In this document: piece by piece, positions 21,415-57,828 of the stretch
Layout of the letters: each line of letters opens with the position of its first letter
Position numbering within the stretch: the first letter of the stretch is position 1
Source of the DNA: an uncultured Thermodesulfobacteriota bacterium
GTDB taxonomy: Bacteria; Desulfobacterota; Desulfarculia; G963662305
Length of the DNA stretch: 64,000 nucleotides
NCBI GenBank assembly: GCA_964634465.1
Contig: CAZWLY010000009.1
Span: 80,397 to 144,396, forward strand
Direction: 5' to 3'
Program-made: the position numbers and the translations under genes
The notes under the pieces: generated by a model
Databases searched by the model: none
What the model saw: only the letters and a program-made list of their open reading frames with translations
Told to the model about the DNA's origin: nothing

Positions 21415-22944
21415 TTGAACGTCTTATTAGTCTACCCTCGCTATCCAGACACGTTCTGGAGCTTCAGATACGCCCTGCGTTTCGTGCGCACCAAAGCCGC
21501 CTACCCGCCGCTGGGCCTGCTCACGGTGGCGGCGATGTTACCGGAGAGCTGGACCAAACGGGTCGTCGATCTGAACATCGAACCGCTCGCCGAGCCCGAC
21601 CTGGATTGGGCCGACCTGGTCTTCATCAGCGGCATGATCATCCAGAGAGAATCGGCCGAGGGAGTCATCGCCCGCTGTCGGGCCAAAGGCGTGAGGGTCG
21701 TGGCCGGCGGGCCGCTGATCACCCACCTCTACCGGGAGATCGAAGGCGTGGACCACTGTATCGTCGGCGAGGCCGAGGAGGTCTTGCCCGACTTCCTGAC
21801 CGATCTCGAGCGGGGCGAGCCCAAACCGGTCTACCAGGCCCAGGGCCATCCCGATCTGGCCCTGACCCCGGCGCCGAGGTGGGAACTGATCGATTTCAAC
21901 GACTACCGCAGCATGTCGATTCAATGCTCCCGCGGCTGCCCGTTCGACTGCGAGTTCTGCGACATCGTCCACCTGTTCGGCCGCCGGATGCGATTCAAGA
22001 AACCGGCCCAGGTCGTAGCCGAGCTCGAGGGCCTGTACCGGTTGGGCTGGCGGCGCGACGTGATGATCGTGGACGACAACTTCATCGGGAACAAGACCAA
22101 GGCGAAGGAACTGCTGCGGGCGATAATCGCCTGGCAGAAAGAGCACGGCAGCCCGTTTAGCTTCAGCACCCAGGCCAGCGTGAATCTGGCCCAGGATCCG
22201 GAACTGATGTCGCTCATGGTCGAGGCCAACCTGGACACCGTCTTCCTGGGCATCGAGACCCCGGCCATGGATTCGCTCAAGGAATGCGAAAAGCGGCAGA
22301 ACCAGGTCGATCTCCTCTCCGCCGTGAAGACCATCCAGGGCTACGGCCTGGTGGTCTCGGGCGGATTCATCCTCGGCTTCGACTCCGATCCACCGACCAT
22401 CTTCGACGACCAGGTCAAGTTTATCGAACAGGCCGGCATCCCGACGGCCATGGTCGGCCTGCTCTCGGCCGGACCCGGCACCAGGCTCTTCAACCGCCTG
22501 CGCGCCCAGGGGCGTCTGCTGAATTTCGTTTCCGGGGACAACGCCATGGACGCCGCCGCCCTGAACTTCATTCCCAAGATGAACCGGGAAAAGCTGATCG
22601 CCGGTTACAAGTCGGTACTCAGCCGTCTCTACGAGCCCAAGGCCTACTACCGCCGGGTGCTGTCCTTTTTGAGAGAGTACGGCAAGGCCTACAAGGGAAA
22701 GAAAGTCTCCTTCCGGCCGCTGGGGATCAAGGACCTGGTGGGCGCGGTTCGAGTCTTCTGGAGGCTGGGTTTCCGCGAGTACGGGCGGCGGGCCTTCTGG
22801 GCCTTCCTGCTCAAGGTCGGCTTGACCCGCCCGACCAGATTCCCGCTGGCGTTGAGCTTCGCCGCCACCGGCTACCACCTCAGAAAAATCACCGATAGAT
22901 TCATCAACGGCAACAAGGGCAACGAGCAGCTCTCGGCGGCCTGA
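21415..22944 (+). CDS. B12-binding radical SAM protein with C-terminal DUF4070-type region
   Basis: An N-terminal B12-binding Rossmann region is followed by 'CSRGCPFDCEFC' (CxxxCxxC). The size and C-terminus are typical of DUF4070-containing B12-rSAM enzymes. TTG start after CAGGAGA. Confidence 0.8.
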   Translation: MNVLLVYPRYPDTFWSFRYALRFVRTKAAYPPLGLLTVAAMLPESWTKRVVDLNIEPLAEPDLDWADLVFISGMIIQRESAEGVIARCRAKGVRVVAGGPLITHLYREIEGVDHCIVGEAEEVLPDFLTDLERGEPKPVYQAQGHPDLALTPAPRWELIDFNDYRSMSIQCSRGCPFDCEFCDIVHLFGRRMRFKKPAQVVAELEGLYRLGWRRDVMIVDDNFIGNKTKAKELLRAIIAWQKEHGSPFSFSTQASVNLAQDPELMSLMVEANLDTVFLGIETPAMDSLKECEKRQNQVDLLSAVKTIQGYGLVVSGGFILGFDSDPPTIFDDQVKFIEQAGIPTAMVGLLSAGPGTRLFNRLRAQGRLLNFVSGDNAMDAAALNFIPKMNREKLIAGYKSVLSRLYEPKAYYRRVLSFLREYGKAYKGKKVSFRPLGIKDLVGAVRVFWRLGFREYGRRAFWAFLLKVGLTRPTRFPLALSFAATGYHLRKITDRFINGNKGNEQLSAA

Positions 22945-51471: not shown

Positions 51472-51547
51472 GTGGCGGTGCAGGGACTTGAACCCCGGAC
51501 GCTACGGATATGAGCCGTATGCTCTAACCAACTGAGCTACACCGCCC
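51471..51547 (-). tRNA. tRNA-Met (anticodon CAT); elongator-like D-arm; tRNA-Ile2 (lysidine) cannot be excluded
   Basis: Manual cloverleaf of the reverse complement: GGCGGTG acceptor, GTAGCTCAGTTGGTTAGAGC D-arm, CUCAUAU anticodon loop, TTCAAGT T-loop, encoded CCA. Confidence 0.85.
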
Positions 51548-52133: not shown

Positions 52134-52474
52134 GGGGCGATTATAGACGGGCCCGCCGGCCGGGGAAAGCCTCTCCGGGTCGATCCGGGCGCCGGTTCGC
52201 TCGACGTCGCTCCGGCCGGCCGGTCGATTTTCATCGCCGCCCAGCGTGGGCCGGTTCTGGTTGCGTATTTGTAACCGGACTCGCCGGCCGGTTACGTTTC
52301 CGGTCCGACCGCCGGCATCTATCTGTAACTACCCGCCAAATCGGGCCAAGCTTTCTGTTGCCTTTTTGCGCTGGGGCGTGCTAAAGTACCACTCGGCGCT
52401 CTGTTTAACAAGTTTCGGCACAACCTGACAATTTGCCTCCATACTTCGCCCGGCCCTTTCAGGAGATAACGAGA

Positions 52475-54025
52475 GTGGTCCTGTTGCGGTTTGCGGTTCC
52501 GGTCGTGTTGTTCGCCTTGCTGTCGCTCTGGCCGGGCCGCGCCGCCGCCGAGACGGCCCAAATGGTGCAGGAGCTCTACACCGGGGCCAGGTTCGACGTC
52601 ATGGACGAGAACTACGACGCCGCCCTGGCCAAACTGGTCAAAGCCCAGGAGCTCGCCCCCGAAGACTTGAGAATCGTCACCTTGATGGCCAGGGTCTTCG
52701 CCCTTCAGGGGCGCGAGGACGAAGCCGTCGATCTCTACGACGCCCTGATCGCCCGGGACCCGGCCCGTTTCGGGCTGCTCAATTTCGAAGTCGCCTATCT
52801 CCTTCAAAAAAAGGAGCGTTACGAGGAAGCCCTGGCCCGGTTCAAGGCCGCGGAGAAGGCCGATTTCCTTCGGGCCATCAAGGAACAGGGCCTGACCTAC
52901 ATGAAGCTGGGCAAGTTCGCCGAGGCCGACGCCGCCTTCGCCCGGGTACGCGAAGCCAAGGACGCGCCGCCAAAGACCCGCCAGCTCTTTCTGTACCTGG
53001 GCGCTCAGACCAATTACCATCGCCGGGACTACAAAACGGCGCTCAAGCGCCTGGATAAAGCCTACCGCCTCGATCCAAGTTCGGACCTGGTTTCGGACAT
53101 CAAGGCCTTCCGCAAGACCACGCTCACCGCCATGCGCCAGGCTCGGCCCTGGCGGCTGTACGTGAGCGCCGCCTACCGCTACGACGACAACATCTACCTC
53201 AATCCTTTCGAGGAAAACCCGAGCGGTAAAAAGACGACCGACAAGGGCGACTCCTCCCTCCAGACCGGCCTCACCTTCTCCTACCGGTTGGCCGAGTTGT
53301 TGGGCGCGACCATCGGCCTTACCGCCGGGGCGAGCAAGTTGAGCTACTTCCACGAATCGGCCGCCGATTTCGCCGCCCTGAACATCGGCGCCTACGTCGG
53401 CAAGTCCTGGAAGACGATGGGGGTGAGATTGCCCTACCAGTACACCTACTACTGGGCCGGGGCCAGCCTGGAGGAGAGACTGGCCGCCCACAGCCTGAAC
53501 CCGGTCTTCTTCTGGCAGATGACCGACCGTTTCCGGACCGAGGTCTCGGGTATGGCCCATTGGAAGAACTACCGGGACCAGACTCCGGACGCCTTCTACT
53601 ACGGCCTGGGCGCGGTTCACATCCTGAACTTCGGCGATCAAGCCAAGTACGTCCGCCTGGGCTACCAATTCGCCGTGGAGGACGCCGACGACGGCCAGTC
53701 GGGCTACCGGATCTGGGAGGTGACCCTGGGTGGTGGAGCGCCCATCTACGGCCCGCTGGCCTTCGACCTGGGCCTCACCCTGGCCTACTACACCTACAAC
53801 GAGCGGCCCAGTTGGTACTACGGGTTGTCCGGAACCGAGCCCTTCACCCGGCGCGACAGGCAGATCAGGGTTTCGGTCCGGATAAGCTATCGTTTCTCGG
53901 AGCGGTGGCAGTTCGGTCTGGGCTACTACTTCACCCACAACGACTCCAACGTCGGCGCCAACGACTACGACCCGTTCAAATTTCAAAAAAACCTCTTTAG
54001 CTTGTCGGTTTTCGGGGCCTTCTGA
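52475..54025 (+). CDS. Outer-membrane protein: N-terminal TPR-like helical region plus C-terminal beta-barrel ending in Phe (Slam/DUF560-like architecture)
   Basis: Signal peptide 'LFALLSLWPGRAAAE'. TPR-like region about 30-230. An alternating aromatic/Gly-rich barrel region follows, with C-terminal '...SLSVFGAF'. GTG start after AGGAG. Confidence 0.55.
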   Translation: MVLLRFAVPVVLFALLSLWPGRAAAETAQMVQELYTGARFDVMDENYDAALAKLVKAQELAPEDLRIVTLMARVFALQGREDEAVDLYDALIARDPARFGLLNFEVAYLLQKKERYEEALARFKAAEKADFLRAIKEQGLTYMKLGKFAEADAAFARVREAKDAPPKTRQLFLYLGAQTNYHRRDYKTALKRLDKAYRLDPSSDLVSDIKAFRKTTLTAMRQARPWRLYVSAAYRYDDNIYLNPFEENPSGKKTTDKGDSSLQTGLTFSYRLAELLGATIGLTAGASKLSYFHESAADFAALNIGAYVGKSWKTMGVRLPYQYTYYWAGASLEERLAAHSLNPVFFWQMTDRFRTEVSGMAHWKNYRDQTPDAFYYGLGAVHILNFGDQAKYVRLGYQFAVEDADDGQSGYRIWEVTLGGGAPIYGPLAFDLGLTLAYYTYNERPSWYYGLSGTEPFTRRDRQIRVSVRISYRFSERWQFGLGYYFTHNDSNVGANDYDPFKFQKNLFSLSVFGAF

Positions 54026-54056: not shown

Positions 54057-55145
54057 ATGATCCGGGCGCGCACCATAGTCCTGGCTCTGCTGCTGGCCCT
54101 CGGCGTGGCTTCGTTCGCCGCCGCGGCCGAGCCCCAGGCCATCGGCCGCATCTACGGCGCGGTCGGCGATTGCCGGGTGGTCAACAAGGACTTGGGCCGG
54201 GATCTCGCCGCCCGGAAGGGGATGGCCCTCTACCAAGGCGACACCATCTTCACCGGAGCAGACTCCACGGTCAAGATCGTCCTGGCCGACGACAGCCTGG
54301 TGCGCGTGGGAGCCGAATCGGAGCTGGCTCTCGACCAGTTCAGACTGGACGTCCAGGCCCAGGAGCGCGAGACTACGCTCAGACTGCCTCTGGGTAAGGT
54401 CAAGGTTCTGGTCAACGATCTTTTCGGCTACAAGGAACGCCGCTTCGAGATCAAGACGCCCACCGCCGTGGCCGGTGTTCGCGGTACCTTGATGGCGGTG
54501 ATCGTCGAGTCGCCGTCCCTGACCAGCGTCGTCGGTTACGACAATCCGGTGGTGGTCTACAACCCCGCCTTCCCGGACCAGGTGGTCGTGCTGACCAACG
54601 TCCAGTTGACCCAAGTCTTCGGCGACAACCCGCCCTCAGAGCCCCGTGACTTGACGCCTCAGGAAGAGGAGAGATTCCGGCAGCTCTTCCCCGACATGCC
54701 TGACGAGTCATCGAGCTCGGAGTCCGGCGGTGAGGGCGGCGGCACGGGCGGTACGGGCGGCACGGGTGGAACGGGCGGCACGGGCTCGCCGGGGGTGAGC
54801 GGGAACACGCCGACTACCGTCCAGACCACGACCACCACCGCGCCGACCACAACCACGACCACGACGACGACCACCACCACGACCACGACGACGACCACCA
54901 CCACGACCACCACGACCACGACCGAGCCGACCACCACGACGACGACCACCACCACGACCACGACCACGACCGAGCCGACCACGACCACCACGACGACGAC
55001 CACCACGACGACGACCACCACCACGACCACGACGACGACCACCACTCTGCCTCCGCCGCCGACGACCACGACCACCACCGTCCCGACCACGACCACCACC
55101 ACGACCACCACCACCCTGTCTCCGGGCTTGAGGCCCTGCTCGTAA
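54057..55145 (+). CDS. Secreted FecR-domain protein with a C-terminal poly-threonine tract of about 100 residues
   Basis: Signal peptide, then a FecR-like beta region ('ALYQGDTIFTGADSTVKIVLADDSLVRVGAESEL...'), then (GGT)4 and T-runs interrupted by EP/LPPPP/VP. Confidence 0.7.
   Translation: MIRARTIVLALLLALGVASFAAAAEPQAIGRIYGAVGDCRVVNKDLGRDLAARKGMALYQGDTIFTGADSTVKIVLADDSLVRVGAESELALDQFRLDVQAQERETTLRLPLGKVKVLVNDLFGYKERRFEIKTPTAVAGVRGTLMAVIVESPSLTSVVGYDNPVVVYNPAFPDQVVVLTNVQLTQVFGDNPPSEPRDLTPQEEERFRQLFPDMPDESSSSESGGEGGGTGGTGGTGGTGGTGSPGVSGNTPTTVQTTTTTAPTTTTTTTTTTTTTTTTTTTTTTTTTTEPTTTTTTTTTTTTTTEPTTTTTTTTTTTTTTTTTTTTTTTLPPPPTTTTTTVPTTTTTTTTTTLSPGLRPCS
54800..55115 (+). repeat. Near-perfect ACC/ACG trinucleotide (Thr-codon) repeat, about 300 bp
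   Basis: Read directly: (ACC/ACG/ACA)n with rare GAG-CCG / CCG interruptions. Confidence 0.9.
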
Positions 55146-55236: not shown

Positions 55237-57828
55237 ATGAAGCGCTCGGTCCTGATCGACGGTCTGGTCCTGGCCGCCTCGGTCGGCTTTACGGCCTACC
55301 TTTTGCCCTGGTCGCTGGTCCTTTCGCCCTCCATCCCGGCCGGCGGCGACACCACCTCCCACTTCGCCGCCCTGGTCCACTTCAAAGACTACGTCCTGCC
55401 CCAGTGGCGGCTTTGGGGCTGGCACCCCGGCAACCTGGCCGGCTTCCCGCTCTTTCAGTTCTATTTCCCCTTGCCGCCGCTGGTGATCGTCGGCTTGAGC
55501 GCTTTCTGGGGCCTGGCGCCGGCCTTCAAGCTGGGGGCGCTGATCCCGGCCCTGGCCTTGCCGGTGAGCGTCTATTTCTGTTTGAGACGCCTGGGGCTGG
55601 GCTTTCCCGGTCCGGCCTTTGGAGCCGCTTTTTCGCTGAGCTTCCTTCTGGCCGAGACCAATCAGGTCTGGGGCGGCAACCTGGCTTCGATTCTGGCCGG
55701 CGAGATTTGCTACGCCTGGGCCTTCAACCTGGTCCCGATCTACCTGGGGTCGCTGTACGCCTGGATGCGAAGCGACGCGCCGTCCGGCCGAGGGGCGATC
55801 CGGCTGGCCGTCCTGCTCCTCTTCATCGGACTCAGCCACGCCTACGCCCTCTTGTTCGCGCTTGCGACCGGGCTCTACTTCCTTCTGGACCGGGGCCGGT
55901 TCAAGGCGGCCGCGCTGGGCCTGTTCGTCGTCTACGCTCTGGCCTTCTTGCTTTTGGGGCTGTGGCTGATTCCGATGCTGGTCTACACCCCCTTGACCGA
56001 GATGTTCAACTTCGTCTGGGTCGTCGATTCCTGGCGGGAGTTTACGCCGACGACGCTCCTGCCGGTCCTCGTCTTGGCCGCCTTGGCCGGGCCGCTGGCC
56101 TGGCGGTGGGGCGAGACGGTCGATCGGGATCGGGCCGGCTTCCTGCTCTTCTGGGTCGTGGCCGCGGCCAGCCTCTACTTTCTGGCCCCGTTCATGAACT
56201 CGATCACTATCCGCTTCGTCCCCTTCGCCCACCTGGCCGCCGTCCTGTTGGCCGCCCAGGGGCTGAGGCTCATCACCCGCCGCCTGGCCGGGCGCGGTCT
56301 GGTCGCGCTCATCGTCGTCCTCGCTTCGGTGGTCTGGACCGGCGGCCGAATGAATTATCTCGACCGCTGGCTCAGTTGGAACAACGCCGGGCTGGAGGCG
56401 ACGCCGGCCTGGTCGGAGGTCGAGCGCCTGACCGAGTTCCTGCGACCGAAGGGTCCGGCCTGGGAGGCGTCCCGGGTGGTCTACGAGCATTCGCCGCTGA
56501 ACGATCAGGCCGGCACACTCAGAATCTTCGAGTCGCTGCCGATTCTGGCCGGCCGGGCCACCCTGGAGGGCGCCTACCTCCAGGCCAGCCCCAACGCGCC
56601 GTTCATCTTCTACCTCCAGTCAGAGGTCAGCCGCCGCAGCTCGTCGCCCTTGCCCGGCTACGTCTACACTCGGCTCAATCTTGGCCGGGCCGTGGAGCAC
56701 ATGCGCCTCTACAACGTCGGCCAATACATCGTCGTCGAGCCGGAAACCCGGAAATTGGCCGACCGCCAGCCGGGCCTGATTCTGGAGCGGGAGTTCGGGA
56801 GCTACTCGGTCTACCGGGTACTCGGCAACCGGGACGCCTACGCCGTTACGCCCGAGCGGGCCCCGGTGCTGGTCATCACCGATCGACCCCAGGCGATCGC
56901 CTTCGAGTGGTTCAGGTTTTCCGATCTGAAGACGCCGCTCGTCTTCGCCCGCCGGATGCCGGCCGGGGCCGGGGAGCGCTTCGCCGGGGTGTTGATCGAT
57001 TCCGGCCGGGACGACGAGGCGTTGTTCAAGCTGATCAGGGAGAACCGGCTGCCCAAAAAGGAGTTGGCCGGCCGGCCCATCGTCGAGAAGATCGCCCCGG
57101 AGCGAATCGAGCTGAGGGGGCTCCAACCCGGCCGGCCGGTGGTGATCAAGATGTCCTATCACCCGGCCTGGCGGACTTTGAGCGGCGAGGAGATATTCAG
57201 GGTCTCTCCGGCCTTCATGCTCGTCTTCCCCGACTCCGACAGGTTGACCCTGGTCTGCGGCCCGACCTGGGCCAACCACCTCGGCCTGGCGCTGAGCGTC
57301 CTCGGGTTGATCCTGATCGGCCTCCTCGCCTGGCGGCCGGGGTTGGCTTTCCCGCTCCGGCCGGAACCGAGGGGGGCGGAAAGGACCGGGCCCCGGCCGT
57401 GGTTGACGGCGTCGTTGCTCGTGGTGTGGGCGATCGGCCTGGCTGGGCTGTGGAGCCGGCACGACGACGCTTCGACCATCCTGGCCAAAGCCAGGGCGCT
57501 CAGGGCCGAGGGCCGTCTCGAGGAGGCCAGGGCCAAGTTCAGGGAGGGGTTGAAGCGCTTCGAGATGTCGGTCGTGGTCGATTATACGTGGTACGATCTG
57601 GCCATGACCTACTACGCCGGCCGGGATTACGCCGAGGCGGAGAGGCTGCTGAAAGAGGTCGTCCGGCGCTTTCCGGACTCGATCCTCATGCCCGAGACCC
57701 TCTACCACTTGGGTTGGTGCGCTGAAAAGCAGGGCCGGGCGGCCGAGGCCGAAGCGTACTGGCGGCGGCTGAGACAGGAGTTTCCGGAAAGCGGATGGGC
57801 CCAGGAGATTGAGAAGCATGGCTCTTAA
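55237..57828 (+). CDS. Large polytopic membrane protein, GT-C/YfhO-like glycosyltransferase architecture with C-terminal TPR domain
   Basis: About 11-13 N-terminal TM helices with an acidic first-loop motif 'GGDTTSHFAALVHFKD'. A soluble domain of about 320 aa follows, then one more TM helix ('LGLALSVLGLILIGLLAW'), then 3-4 TPRs. The family call is from architecture only. Confidence 0.45.
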   Translation: MKRSVLIDGLVLAASVGFTAYLLPWSLVLSPSIPAGGDTTSHFAALVHFKDYVLPQWRLWGWHPGNLAGFPLFQFYFPLPPLVIVGLSAFWGLAPAFKLGALIPALALPVSVYFCLRRLGLGFPGPAFGAAFSLSFLLAETNQVWGGNLASILAGEICYAWAFNLVPIYLGSLYAWMRSDAPSGRGAIRLAVLLLFIGLSHAYALLFALATGLYFLLDRGRFKAAALGLFVVYALAFLLLGLWLIPMLVYTPLTEMFNFVWVVDSWREFTPTTLLPVLVLAALAGPLAWRWGETVDRDRAGFLLFWVVAAASLYFLAPFMNSITIRFVPFAHLAAVLLAAQGLRLITRRLAGRGLVALIVVLASVVWTGGRMNYLDRWLSWNNAGLEATPAWSEVERLTEFLRPKGPAWEASRVVYEHSPLNDQAGTLRIFESLPILAGRATLEGAYLQASPNAPFIFYLQSEVSRRSSSPLPGYVYTRLNLGRAVEHMRLYNVGQYIVVEPETRKLADRQPGLILEREFGSYSVYRVLGNRDAYAVTPERAPVLVITDRPQAIAFEWFRFSDLKTPLVFARRMPAGAGERFAGVLIDSGRDDEALFKLIRENRLPKKELAGRPIVEKIAPERIELRGLQPGRPVVIKMSYHPAWRTLSGEEIFRVSPAFMLVFPDSDRLTLVCGPTWANHLGLALSVLGLILIGLLAWRPGLAFPLRPEPRGAERTGPRPWLTASLLVVWAIGLAGLWSRHDDASTILAKARALRAEGRLEEARAKFREGLKRFEMSVVVDYTWYDLAMTYYAGRDYAEAERLLKEVVRRFPDSILMPETLYHLGWCAEKQGRAAEAEAYWRRLRQEFPESGWAQEIEKHGS

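Follow-up and report, generated by a model that had tools for sequence, protein, structure and literature searches.

What does a multi-spanning membrane protein with the look of a glycosyltransferase do when it is encoded between a secreted protein that ends in threonine and a sensor-linked nucleotidyl cyclase? The question is raised by a stretch of 64,000 nucleotides from an uncultured Thermodesulfobacteriota bacterium (GTDB Desulfobacterota, Desulfarculia; GenBank assembly GCA_964634465.1, contig CAZWLY010000009.1, positions 80,397 to 144,396 of the forward strand), the whole of which we call the window. Four genes run head to tail on its plus strand, encoding a Slam-like outer-membrane protein, a FecR-domain protein with a poly-threonine (poly-Thr) tail, a GT-C membrane protein with C-terminal tetratricopeptide repeats (TPRs) and a cyclase with a CHASE2 sensor domain (Table 1). 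A first reading of the bare sequence, hereafter the original prediction, had singled out the third gene for its likeness to the YfhO and TMTC proteins. Here we report that its product belongs to Pfam family PF10131 and is very probably a periplasm-facing GT-C glycosyltransferase. That it is, more specifically, an inner-membrane O-glycosyltransferase which uses a lipid-linked sugar to modify the poly-Thr tail of the FecR-domain protein is a proposal that we find about as easy to believe as to doubt.

The gene is the single long open reading frame (ORF) at its position. It starts with ATG, with GGAG 8-11 nt 5' of it, and both of its ends (55237 and 57828) recur in gene predictions made independently for two public contigs assembled from short reads, which carry the identical protein. 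Its stop codon (TAA, 57826-57828) lies beyond the ATG of the cyclase gene (57818), and the resulting overlap of 11 nt (57818-57828) had been read correctly in the original prediction and is reproduced by the public gene calls; it suggests that the two genes may be translationally coupled, as that prediction held. The protein matches PF10131 (PTPS_related) over residues 73-546 with E = 1.3e-31 and 110.2 bits, against a cut-off of 26.4 bits; apart from TPR-related families and a single DUF4192 match below threshold, Pfam returned nothing else at E <= 1, and hence no further GT-C model. PF10131 is placed in the Pfam GT-C clan CL0111 and is described as being of unknown function (PMC7801869).

Comparison of an AlphaFold model with known structures, which had been proposed at the outset, points to the GT-C fold. 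The AlphaFold2 model, built on 50 homologues, has a mean predicted local distance difference test score (pLDDT) of 92.9 and a predicted template modelling score (pTM) of 0.92. Searched against the PDB with Foldseek (matches with E <= 1e-3 taken as significant), it matched AftD over 855 columns (E = 1.3e-7), an STT3 chain (7.8e-5), AglB (3wak, 1.1e-4), AftA and ArnT (2.1e-4 each) and also human STT3A, with a weaker match to Pmt4 (E = 3.5e-3). Every PDB match at E <= 1e-3 that covered the membrane core was a GT-C enzyme; the only other one was YbgF (2xev), which ranked tenth, aligned with the TPRs only and gave a TM-score of 0.88 normalised to the target. The best whole-chain matches, AftD and AglB/STT3, have 10-15% identity and TM-scores of 0.3-0.4, and so share the core only. 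The substrate of AftD is arabinan, and the enzyme has carbohydrate-binding modules; oligosaccharyltransferases N-glycosylate asparagine, helped by a WWDYG motif. When the PDB was searched by sequence and by profile, only TPR proteins came up and no GT-C chain. The model and the PF10131 match together support our assignment of the N-terminal domain to the GT-C fold.

Topology was read from the secondary structure of the model together with the positive-inside rule. The multipass core foreseen in the original prediction is there, with 11 transmembrane (TM) helices before the soluble domain and not about 12: TM1 (residues 3-22) is followed by a long first loop (residues 23-92) and then by ten more helices up to residue 370, helices 39-56 and 79-91 within loop 1 being taken as interfacial. 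The expected soluble domain of about 320 residues is likewise present, at 307, whereas the single late helix predicted to follow it proved, from model and charge distribution, to be two. These bring the total to 13 and are joined by a loop of 21 residues that holds five arginines. If the N-terminus is cytoplasmic, Lys and Arg number 18 among the 64 residues of the short loops on the cytoplasmic side and three among the 127 of those on the periplasmic side, and the bias is kept as a mean over the 50 homologues. By this rule the acidic first loop, whose placement in the cytoplasm would have spoken against the original prediction, is periplasmic. Since there are two late helices, the TPRs should return to the side of the soluble domain, and loop 1, the soluble domain and the TPRs are thus all predicted to lie in the periplasm; a single late helix with cytoplasmic TPRs was rejected on the hairpin helices of the model and the charge distribution. 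The C-terminal repeats themselves, also anticipated, form seven helices (745-862), resemble YbgF/CpoB and BamD, and match TPR_6, TPR_2 and TPR_16 in Pfam and YbgF in NCBIfam. The soluble domain, modelled alone (pLDDT 88.7), found weak fold matches, the best being a faint likeness to the C-terminal globular domain of the archaeal oligosaccharyltransferase AglB (3vu0), which at E = 0.018 is not significant.

Conservation, counted over an alignment of 50 homologues and given here in the numbering of the window protein, marks out the residues on which activity might depend. After TM1 the family shares the motif T-G-G-D-T-x-S-H-Y, which in the window reads GGDTTSHF and lies in the first loop; G36 is kept in all 50 homologues and G37 and D38 in 49 each, and D38 is a candidate catalytic or donor-binding aspartate. 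The original prediction had pointed to a longer acidic motif, GGDTTSHF...HFKD, of which the GGD half is conserved and the HFKD half is not, its D51 being acidic in just 32 homologues. Other polar residues facing the periplasm are K98, H201 and R326 (50/50 each) and E140 (47/50), and in the soluble domain R413, E417, R429, E432, R440 and Q449 are invariant. All the invariant and near-invariant polar residues of the family are retained in the window protein.

The architecture is the standard one of a large, catalogued and uncharacterised family, and is neither rare nor new. A phmmer search with residues 1-740 against target clusters at 50% identity gave 1999 clusters at E <= 1e-3 and 552 at E <= 1e-30. 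When one genome per species was scanned, 297 stretches proved to contain relatives, mostly from Desulfobacterota and also from Binatia, Acidobacteriota, Gammaproteobacteria, anammox Planctomycetota and Margulisiibacteriota, the closest being metagenome-assembled genomes (MAGs) of Desulfarculia at 55-57% identity. A word-indexed protein search yielded 361 matches, and among the matches listed nearly all combine PF10131 with TPRs in 850-1300 residues under names such as 'tetratricopeptide repeat protein' or a PTPS-related one. The window protein is a direct member of this family, in which hundreds of homologues share its full architecture including the C-terminal TPRs. Two members of about 700 residues that apparently lack TPRs (L065:6001-7950 and L075:3671-5692) lie on contigs binned as Aenigmatarchaeota, which could reflect mis-binning or transfer into archaea.

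Several other identities were considered and rejected. NCBI annotates PF10131 as '6-pyruvoyl-tetrahydropterin synthase-related protein', and we set aside a link to pterin synthesis when no PTPS enzyme domain appeared in Pfam or NCBIfam scans; because none was detected, the name PTPS_related is a historical misnomer. Membership of the PMT (GT39) family was rejected with neither a PMT nor a MIR match in Pfam, the weak structural match to Pmt4 standing alone. The protein is not a YfhO family member, since Pfam at E <= 1 gave no match to the YfhO model (PF09586). Nor is it a TMTC: no TMTC-type Pfam model (PMT_2-type and DUF1736 for the N-domain) appeared at E <= 1, and the layout differs. The original likeness to TMTC and YfhO is therefore borne out for the GT-C fold and, in the predicted topology, for the general layout with extracytoplasmic TPRs, and not for family membership.

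More can be learned from the company the family keeps. We clustered the ORFs around the 80 best species-level loci. A gene for a GT2 protein of about 245 residues lies within 6 kb in 41 of the 80 and often overlaps the stop codon of the GT-C gene; the protein is matched best by polyprenyl-phosphate glycosyltransferases (GtrB 5ekp, ArnC 9hwj and DPMS 5mlz), and it also matches the ArnC and PgfS models of NCBIfam. To judge from these matches it is the classic donor-making partner of GT-C enzymes, and it provides our strongest evidence, indirect as it is, that the family is probably active and uses a lipid-linked monosaccharide. This association and the co-occurrence of FecR poly-Thr tails with the enzyme, described below, are the new observations of the present study.

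The commonest neighbour is a secreted protein of about 270 residues with a C-terminal TM anchor, encoded directly upstream in 45 of the 80 loci (for example L005:5186-6004 and L019:2758-3588, with about 43 others). It has no Pfam or NCBIfam family, and in some homologues of 1100-1300 residues it is fused to the N-terminus of the enzyme, so that the match to our query begins at about residue 285. Genes for B12-binding radical S-adenosylmethionine (SAM) enzymes are neighbours in 24 loci and GNAT genes in 12. The window has a B12-binding radical SAM gene of its own (21415..22494, plus strand), 23-29% identical to these neighbours; a connection with the GT-C gene is doubtful because the two are 33 kb apart. 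In 14 of the 80 loci, which span at least three clades and vary in arrangement, the enzyme gene has Slam-like, FecR or CHASE2 genes near it. CHASE2 adjacency as a general trait of the family was rejected, as it holds for about 9-14 of the 80 loci only. A second, independent link to signalling genes is given by proteins that combine GAF with an HD domain (HD_5), which recur in 10 of the 80 loci (L008:8617-9840, minus strand; L031:3462-5087 and L042:2990-4570, plus strand; and seven others), five of them ending between 3 nt inside and 25 nt before the start of the enzyme gene.

The acceptor that we favour is suggested by the tails of the FecR-domain proteins. The window protein of this kind has a Gly-rich stretch followed by some 110 C-terminal residues of almost pure threonine, and its gene ends 91 nt upstream of that of the enzyme. 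A poly-Thr or Thr-rich tail is present on each of the ten FecR-domain proteins whose genes lie no more than about 6 kb from a family member (the window, L005, L007, L009, L013, L035, L042, L051, L061 and L083); those of L042 and L051 are cut by the end of the locus and are Thr-rich already, and L083 was found independently, through a search with the FecR domain as query. In the tree of the enzyme these loci belong to at least three clades, and their gene orders differ. None of the four related FecR proteins from loci without the enzyme (L084, L086, L087 and L088) carries poly-Thr. One of these, L084 (8348-13420), has the same operon of Slam-like, FecR and CHASE2 cyclase genes without the GT-C gene, with a cyclase 49% identical to that of the window; its FecR protein ends in TPPGQDKDK repeats, and those of the other three lack a Ser/Thr-rich tail. 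At face value, Fisher's exact test on 10/10 against 0/4 returns a probability of about 0.001, which overstates the evidence as the loci are not independent. Nevertheless, the pattern is not simply a clade effect, because the L084 FecR protein is 41% identical to that of the window and thus closer to it than are several of the poly-Thr proteins (32-37%). In separate observations, P0121 has a TPPGQ tail similar to that of the L084 FecR protein, the C-termini of the poly-Thr FecR proteins in L013, L035, L061 and L083 (P0124) carry a short conserved Pro-rich motif (LPPLPGPPGPPG/S, LPPMLPAPPGLPQ), and the FecR protein of the window ends LPPPPTTTTTTVPTTTTTTTTTTLSPGLRPCS. The Pro-rich motif could serve in sorting or anchoring.

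Other secreted proteins with Ser/Thr-rich segments lie near the enzyme as well, so that such proteins are found in 19 of the 80 loci in all, an enrichment that is suggestive only, as the count comes without a genomic background rate. In the other 63 kb of the window, no ORF besides the FecR gene reaches the same Ser/Thr-rich threshold. Just downstream of several members are secreted proteins of about 190-205 residues with a Ser/Thr-rich tail and a conserved end, LLNRLASARGL/ARNL (L037:9006-9593, L037:9764-10387, L039:8761-9378, L045:9040-9603 and L054:8789-9364, all on the minus strand), which we regard as candidates for further acceptors. Long poly-Thr linkers or tails also occur in secreted proteins within 6 kb of the enzyme in distant MAGs, including Margulisiibacteriota and Gammaproteobacteria, again without a background rate (plus strand: L032:918-2366, L026:165-1220, L058:1647-3041, L067:3663-5114 and L024:404-3409; minus strand: L025:2126-3454, L066:284-1054, L076:10322-14239 and L078:930-2081).

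Table 1. Features of the operon and of the GT-C/TPR protein, in window coordinates; domain boundaries and membrane sides of that protein are as predicted from the model and the charge distribution
Feature	Position	Strand	Basis
Outer-membrane protein with N-terminal TPRs and C-terminal Slam-like (SlipAM/DUF560) barrel	52433..54025	+	Pfam
Secreted FecR-domain protein, 362 aa, with signal peptide; FecR domain at residues 62-154	54057..55145	+	Translation; PF04773, 9.8e-13
ACC/ACG triplet repeat encoding the poly-Thr tail	54824..55115	+	Tandem Repeats Finder, period 3, 94 copies
PF10131-family GT-C membrane protein with C-terminal TPR domain, 863 aa	55237..57828	+	ORF, Pfam, AlphaFold2, Foldseek
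Predicted GT-C transmembrane core, residues 1-370, 11 TM helices, N-terminus cytoplasmic	55237..56346	+	AlphaFold2 helices, positive-inside count, Foldseek
Codons of G36-G37-D38, predicted periplasmic loop 1	55342..55350	+	Conservation, codons read
Predicted periplasmic soluble domain, residues 371-677, mixed alpha/beta, 307 aa	56347..57267	+	AlphaFold2, conservation
Predicted TM hairpin: TM12 (678-699), Arg-rich cytoplasmic loop, TM13 (721-740)	57268..57456	+	AlphaFold2, charge
Predicted periplasmic TPR domain, residues 745-863, about 3.5 repeats	57469..57825	+	Pfam, NCBIfam, Foldseek
CHASE2 sensor domain with class III nucleotidyl cyclase, 740 aa	57818..60040	+	PF05226, 5.6e-60; PF00211, 1.1e-24

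The gene for the protein like Slam (surface lipoprotein assembly modulator) probably starts at the GTG at 52475, behind AGGAG; its product matches TPR_19 and TPR_16 in Pfam and, at the borderline, SlipAM (PF04575, E = 6.7e-5, 23 bits against a cut-off of 22). Slam-like homologues directly precede FecR genes in ten loci (L005, L009, L013, L035, L042, L051, L061, L083, L084 and L085), and the protein could export or display the FecR-poly-Thr protein, even though the latter has no lipobox cysteine. Two public short-read contigs (L001 and L002) begin at window position 55085, inside the ACC/ACG repeat, which suggests that assemblies break within it. Upstream of the operon, and transcribed the other way, is a tRNA gene (51473..51546, minus strand; 67 bits), the only feature that Rfam found there; promoter and terminator scans gave nothing above shuffled expectation. 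A periplasmic FecR-domain protein encoded beside a CHASE2 sensor has been described before, in the LysM-FecR/CHASE2 kinase operon of Burkholderia and for SMc02177 of S. meliloti (PMC5192318, PMC5498481), and the window operon contains such a pair. It differs from those systems in that the papers make no mention of a poly-Thr tail or of an interposed GT-C gene (PMC5192318, PMC5498481), and the related FecR/CHASE2 loci that lack the GT-C gene also lack the tail.

Building on the fold, the family, the charge bias, the conserved residues and the gene neighbourhoods described above, we infer a donor, an acceptor, an activity and an effect on signalling, as follows. A cytoplasmic GT2 enzyme, of the kind that half of the related loci encode beside the GT-C gene, would load a single sugar onto undecaprenyl phosphate, and the lipid-linked sugar would be flipped to the periplasmic face. 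There the GT-C core, with D38 and with K98, E140, H201 and R326 facing the periplasm, would transfer the sugar to a periplasmic acceptor, which here would be the threonine hydroxyls in the tail of the FecR-domain protein, resulting in O-glycosylation. The soluble domain and the short TPR domain, on the same side of the membrane, would probably hold the acceptor. As FecR proteins are the usual periplasmic partners of CHASE2 sensors, the modification, which might stiffen, protect or extend the tail, may then stabilise, lengthen or tune the arm with which the downstream cyclase senses.

A precedent for such a pathway exists in streptococci, in which the GT2 enzyme GtrB (an undecaprenyl phosphate glucose synthase) and the YfhO-family GT-C enzyme PgtC2 add glucose to poly-Ser/Thr tails outside the cytoplasm and thereby protect them from proteolysis (PMC12041528). 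GtrB/PgtC2 and PgfS/PgfM1 follow the logic that we propose here, with donor synthesis by a GT2 enzyme, extracytoplasmic transfer by a GT-C enzyme and poly-Ser/Thr acceptors, which are secreted or membrane proteins and include some that take part in signalling (PMC12041528). Our case differs in the GT-C family, in the hosts, which are diderm and mostly Desulfobacterota, in the periplasmic domain, TM hairpin and TPRs that the window protein adds, and in that its activity is presumed from comparison. The eukaryotic TMTC1-4 have in common with the window protein, in its predicted topology, a GT-C core, C-terminal non-cytoplasmic TPRs and an acidic residue in loop 1. The TMTCs carry a DD motif and at least eight TPRs directly behind the last TM helix, whereas the window protein has GGD and about 3.5 TPRs, with a 307-residue domain and two TM helices in between.

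There are several points that weigh against glycosylation of the FecR tail. The correlation with poly-Thr comes from 14 loci that are not phylogenetically independent, and the count of 19 loci with Ser/Thr-rich proteins has no background with which to compare it. No GT2 partner gene was found within the 64-kb window, and the 270-residue protein, the family's most conserved neighbour, is not encoded there either, which sets the window copy apart from the family. The soluble domain, modelled alone, gave no informative fold match, and our search of the literature on PF10131, on its annotated name and on bacterial GT-C proteins with TPRs found no functional study. Of the 80 loci, 66 have no signalling module nearby; glycosylation of FecR proteins is therefore not the general role of the family. 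Finally, the best structural matches include AftD, AftA and ArnT, which act on glycans or lipids, and a non-protein acceptor would fit the fold equally well.

This last point leads to the strongest of the alternatives, namely that the enzyme is an active GT-C transferase whose acceptor is a glycan or lipid of the envelope, such as lipopolysaccharide, lipid A, peptidoglycan or an exopolysaccharide, as for ArnT, GtrC, YfhO/CsbB and AftD. In that case the gene would sit in a CHASE2 operon because remodelling of the envelope is regulated together with cyclic-nucleotide signalling. Not only the structural matches but also the conserved GT2 partner, which resembles ArnC and GtrB, would suit such an acceptor; the radical SAM and GNAT neighbours could tailor the sugar or the polymer, and most loci have no Thr-rich protein near the enzyme. 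For the majority of members, those without a Thr-rich neighbour, the acceptor may well be a glycan or lipid. For the window we consider it unlikely, if far from negligible, given that poly-Thr accompanies every FecR protein near the enzyme and none of the four elsewhere, that further secreted Ser/Thr-rich proteins adjoin family members, that TPR domains usually bind proteins or peptides, and that the window operon showed no genes for polysaccharide export or polymerases.

It might also be that the protein is no longer an enzyme at all, and serves as a GT-C-derived scaffold or co-sensor whose TPR and periplasmic domains bind the FecR-like protein or CHASE2 and control the cyclase. The position of its gene between the FecR and CHASE2 genes, with the 11-nt overlap onto the start of the cyclase, would be natural for such a role, as would the lack of a donor-synthase GT2 gene in the window; that the closely related L084 operon works without the GT-C gene also speaks for it. 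We nonetheless hold a scaffold role to be improbable because the window protein keeps the invariant and near-invariant polar residues of the family, D38, K98, E140, H201 and R326 among them. Moreover, its close relatives L006 and L007 belong to the same type of operon and have a GT2 gene just past the cyclase, and it is with GT2 genes, and not with signalling genes, that the family at large is associated. That the protein is instead an orthologue of TMTC or YfhO is very improbable: the general layout of a GT-C core with extracytoplasmic TPRs is the same, and PF10131 is among the best HHpred matches of the TMTC N-domains (E ~1e-15; PMC7801869), but no GT-C family other than PF10131 is matched in Pfam at E <= 1, PDB sequence searches match the TPR part only, and the 307-residue domain and TM hairpin are absent from TMTC.

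In summary, the interest of this gene lies in its context, an operon that unites a CHASE2 cyclase with a Slam-like protein and a poly-Thr FecR protein, and in the association of such tails with the enzyme across clades, and not in an architecture that is itself ordinary. We offer, tentatively and with rather more doubt than conviction, a wider proposal: that PF10131-TPR enzymes may be the transferases of an unrecognised periplasmic pathway of protein O-glycosylation in Desulfobacterota and several other diderm phyla, acting on poly-Thr tails of secreted proteins with undecaprenyl-phosphate donors, and that the FecR-like partner of the CHASE2 cyclase would here be a glycosylated, mucin-like co-sensor, possibly displayed by the Slam-like protein. 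If this is not so, the gene encodes an ordinary envelope-modifying GT-C enzyme. From its gene neighbourhoods PF10131, with its misleading name, its roughly 2000 clusters at 50% identity and a distribution that takes in sulfate reducers, anammox bacteria, Binatia and Acidobacteriota, gains a concrete function that can be tested, together with candidates for the donor pathway and for the acceptors. If the tails are indeed glycosylated, the O-glycosylation of disordered Ser/Thr tails, which has come to light recently in streptococci, would reach diderm anaerobes, and the operon would give a first molecular clue to how the FecR-like partners of CHASE2 sensors are built.

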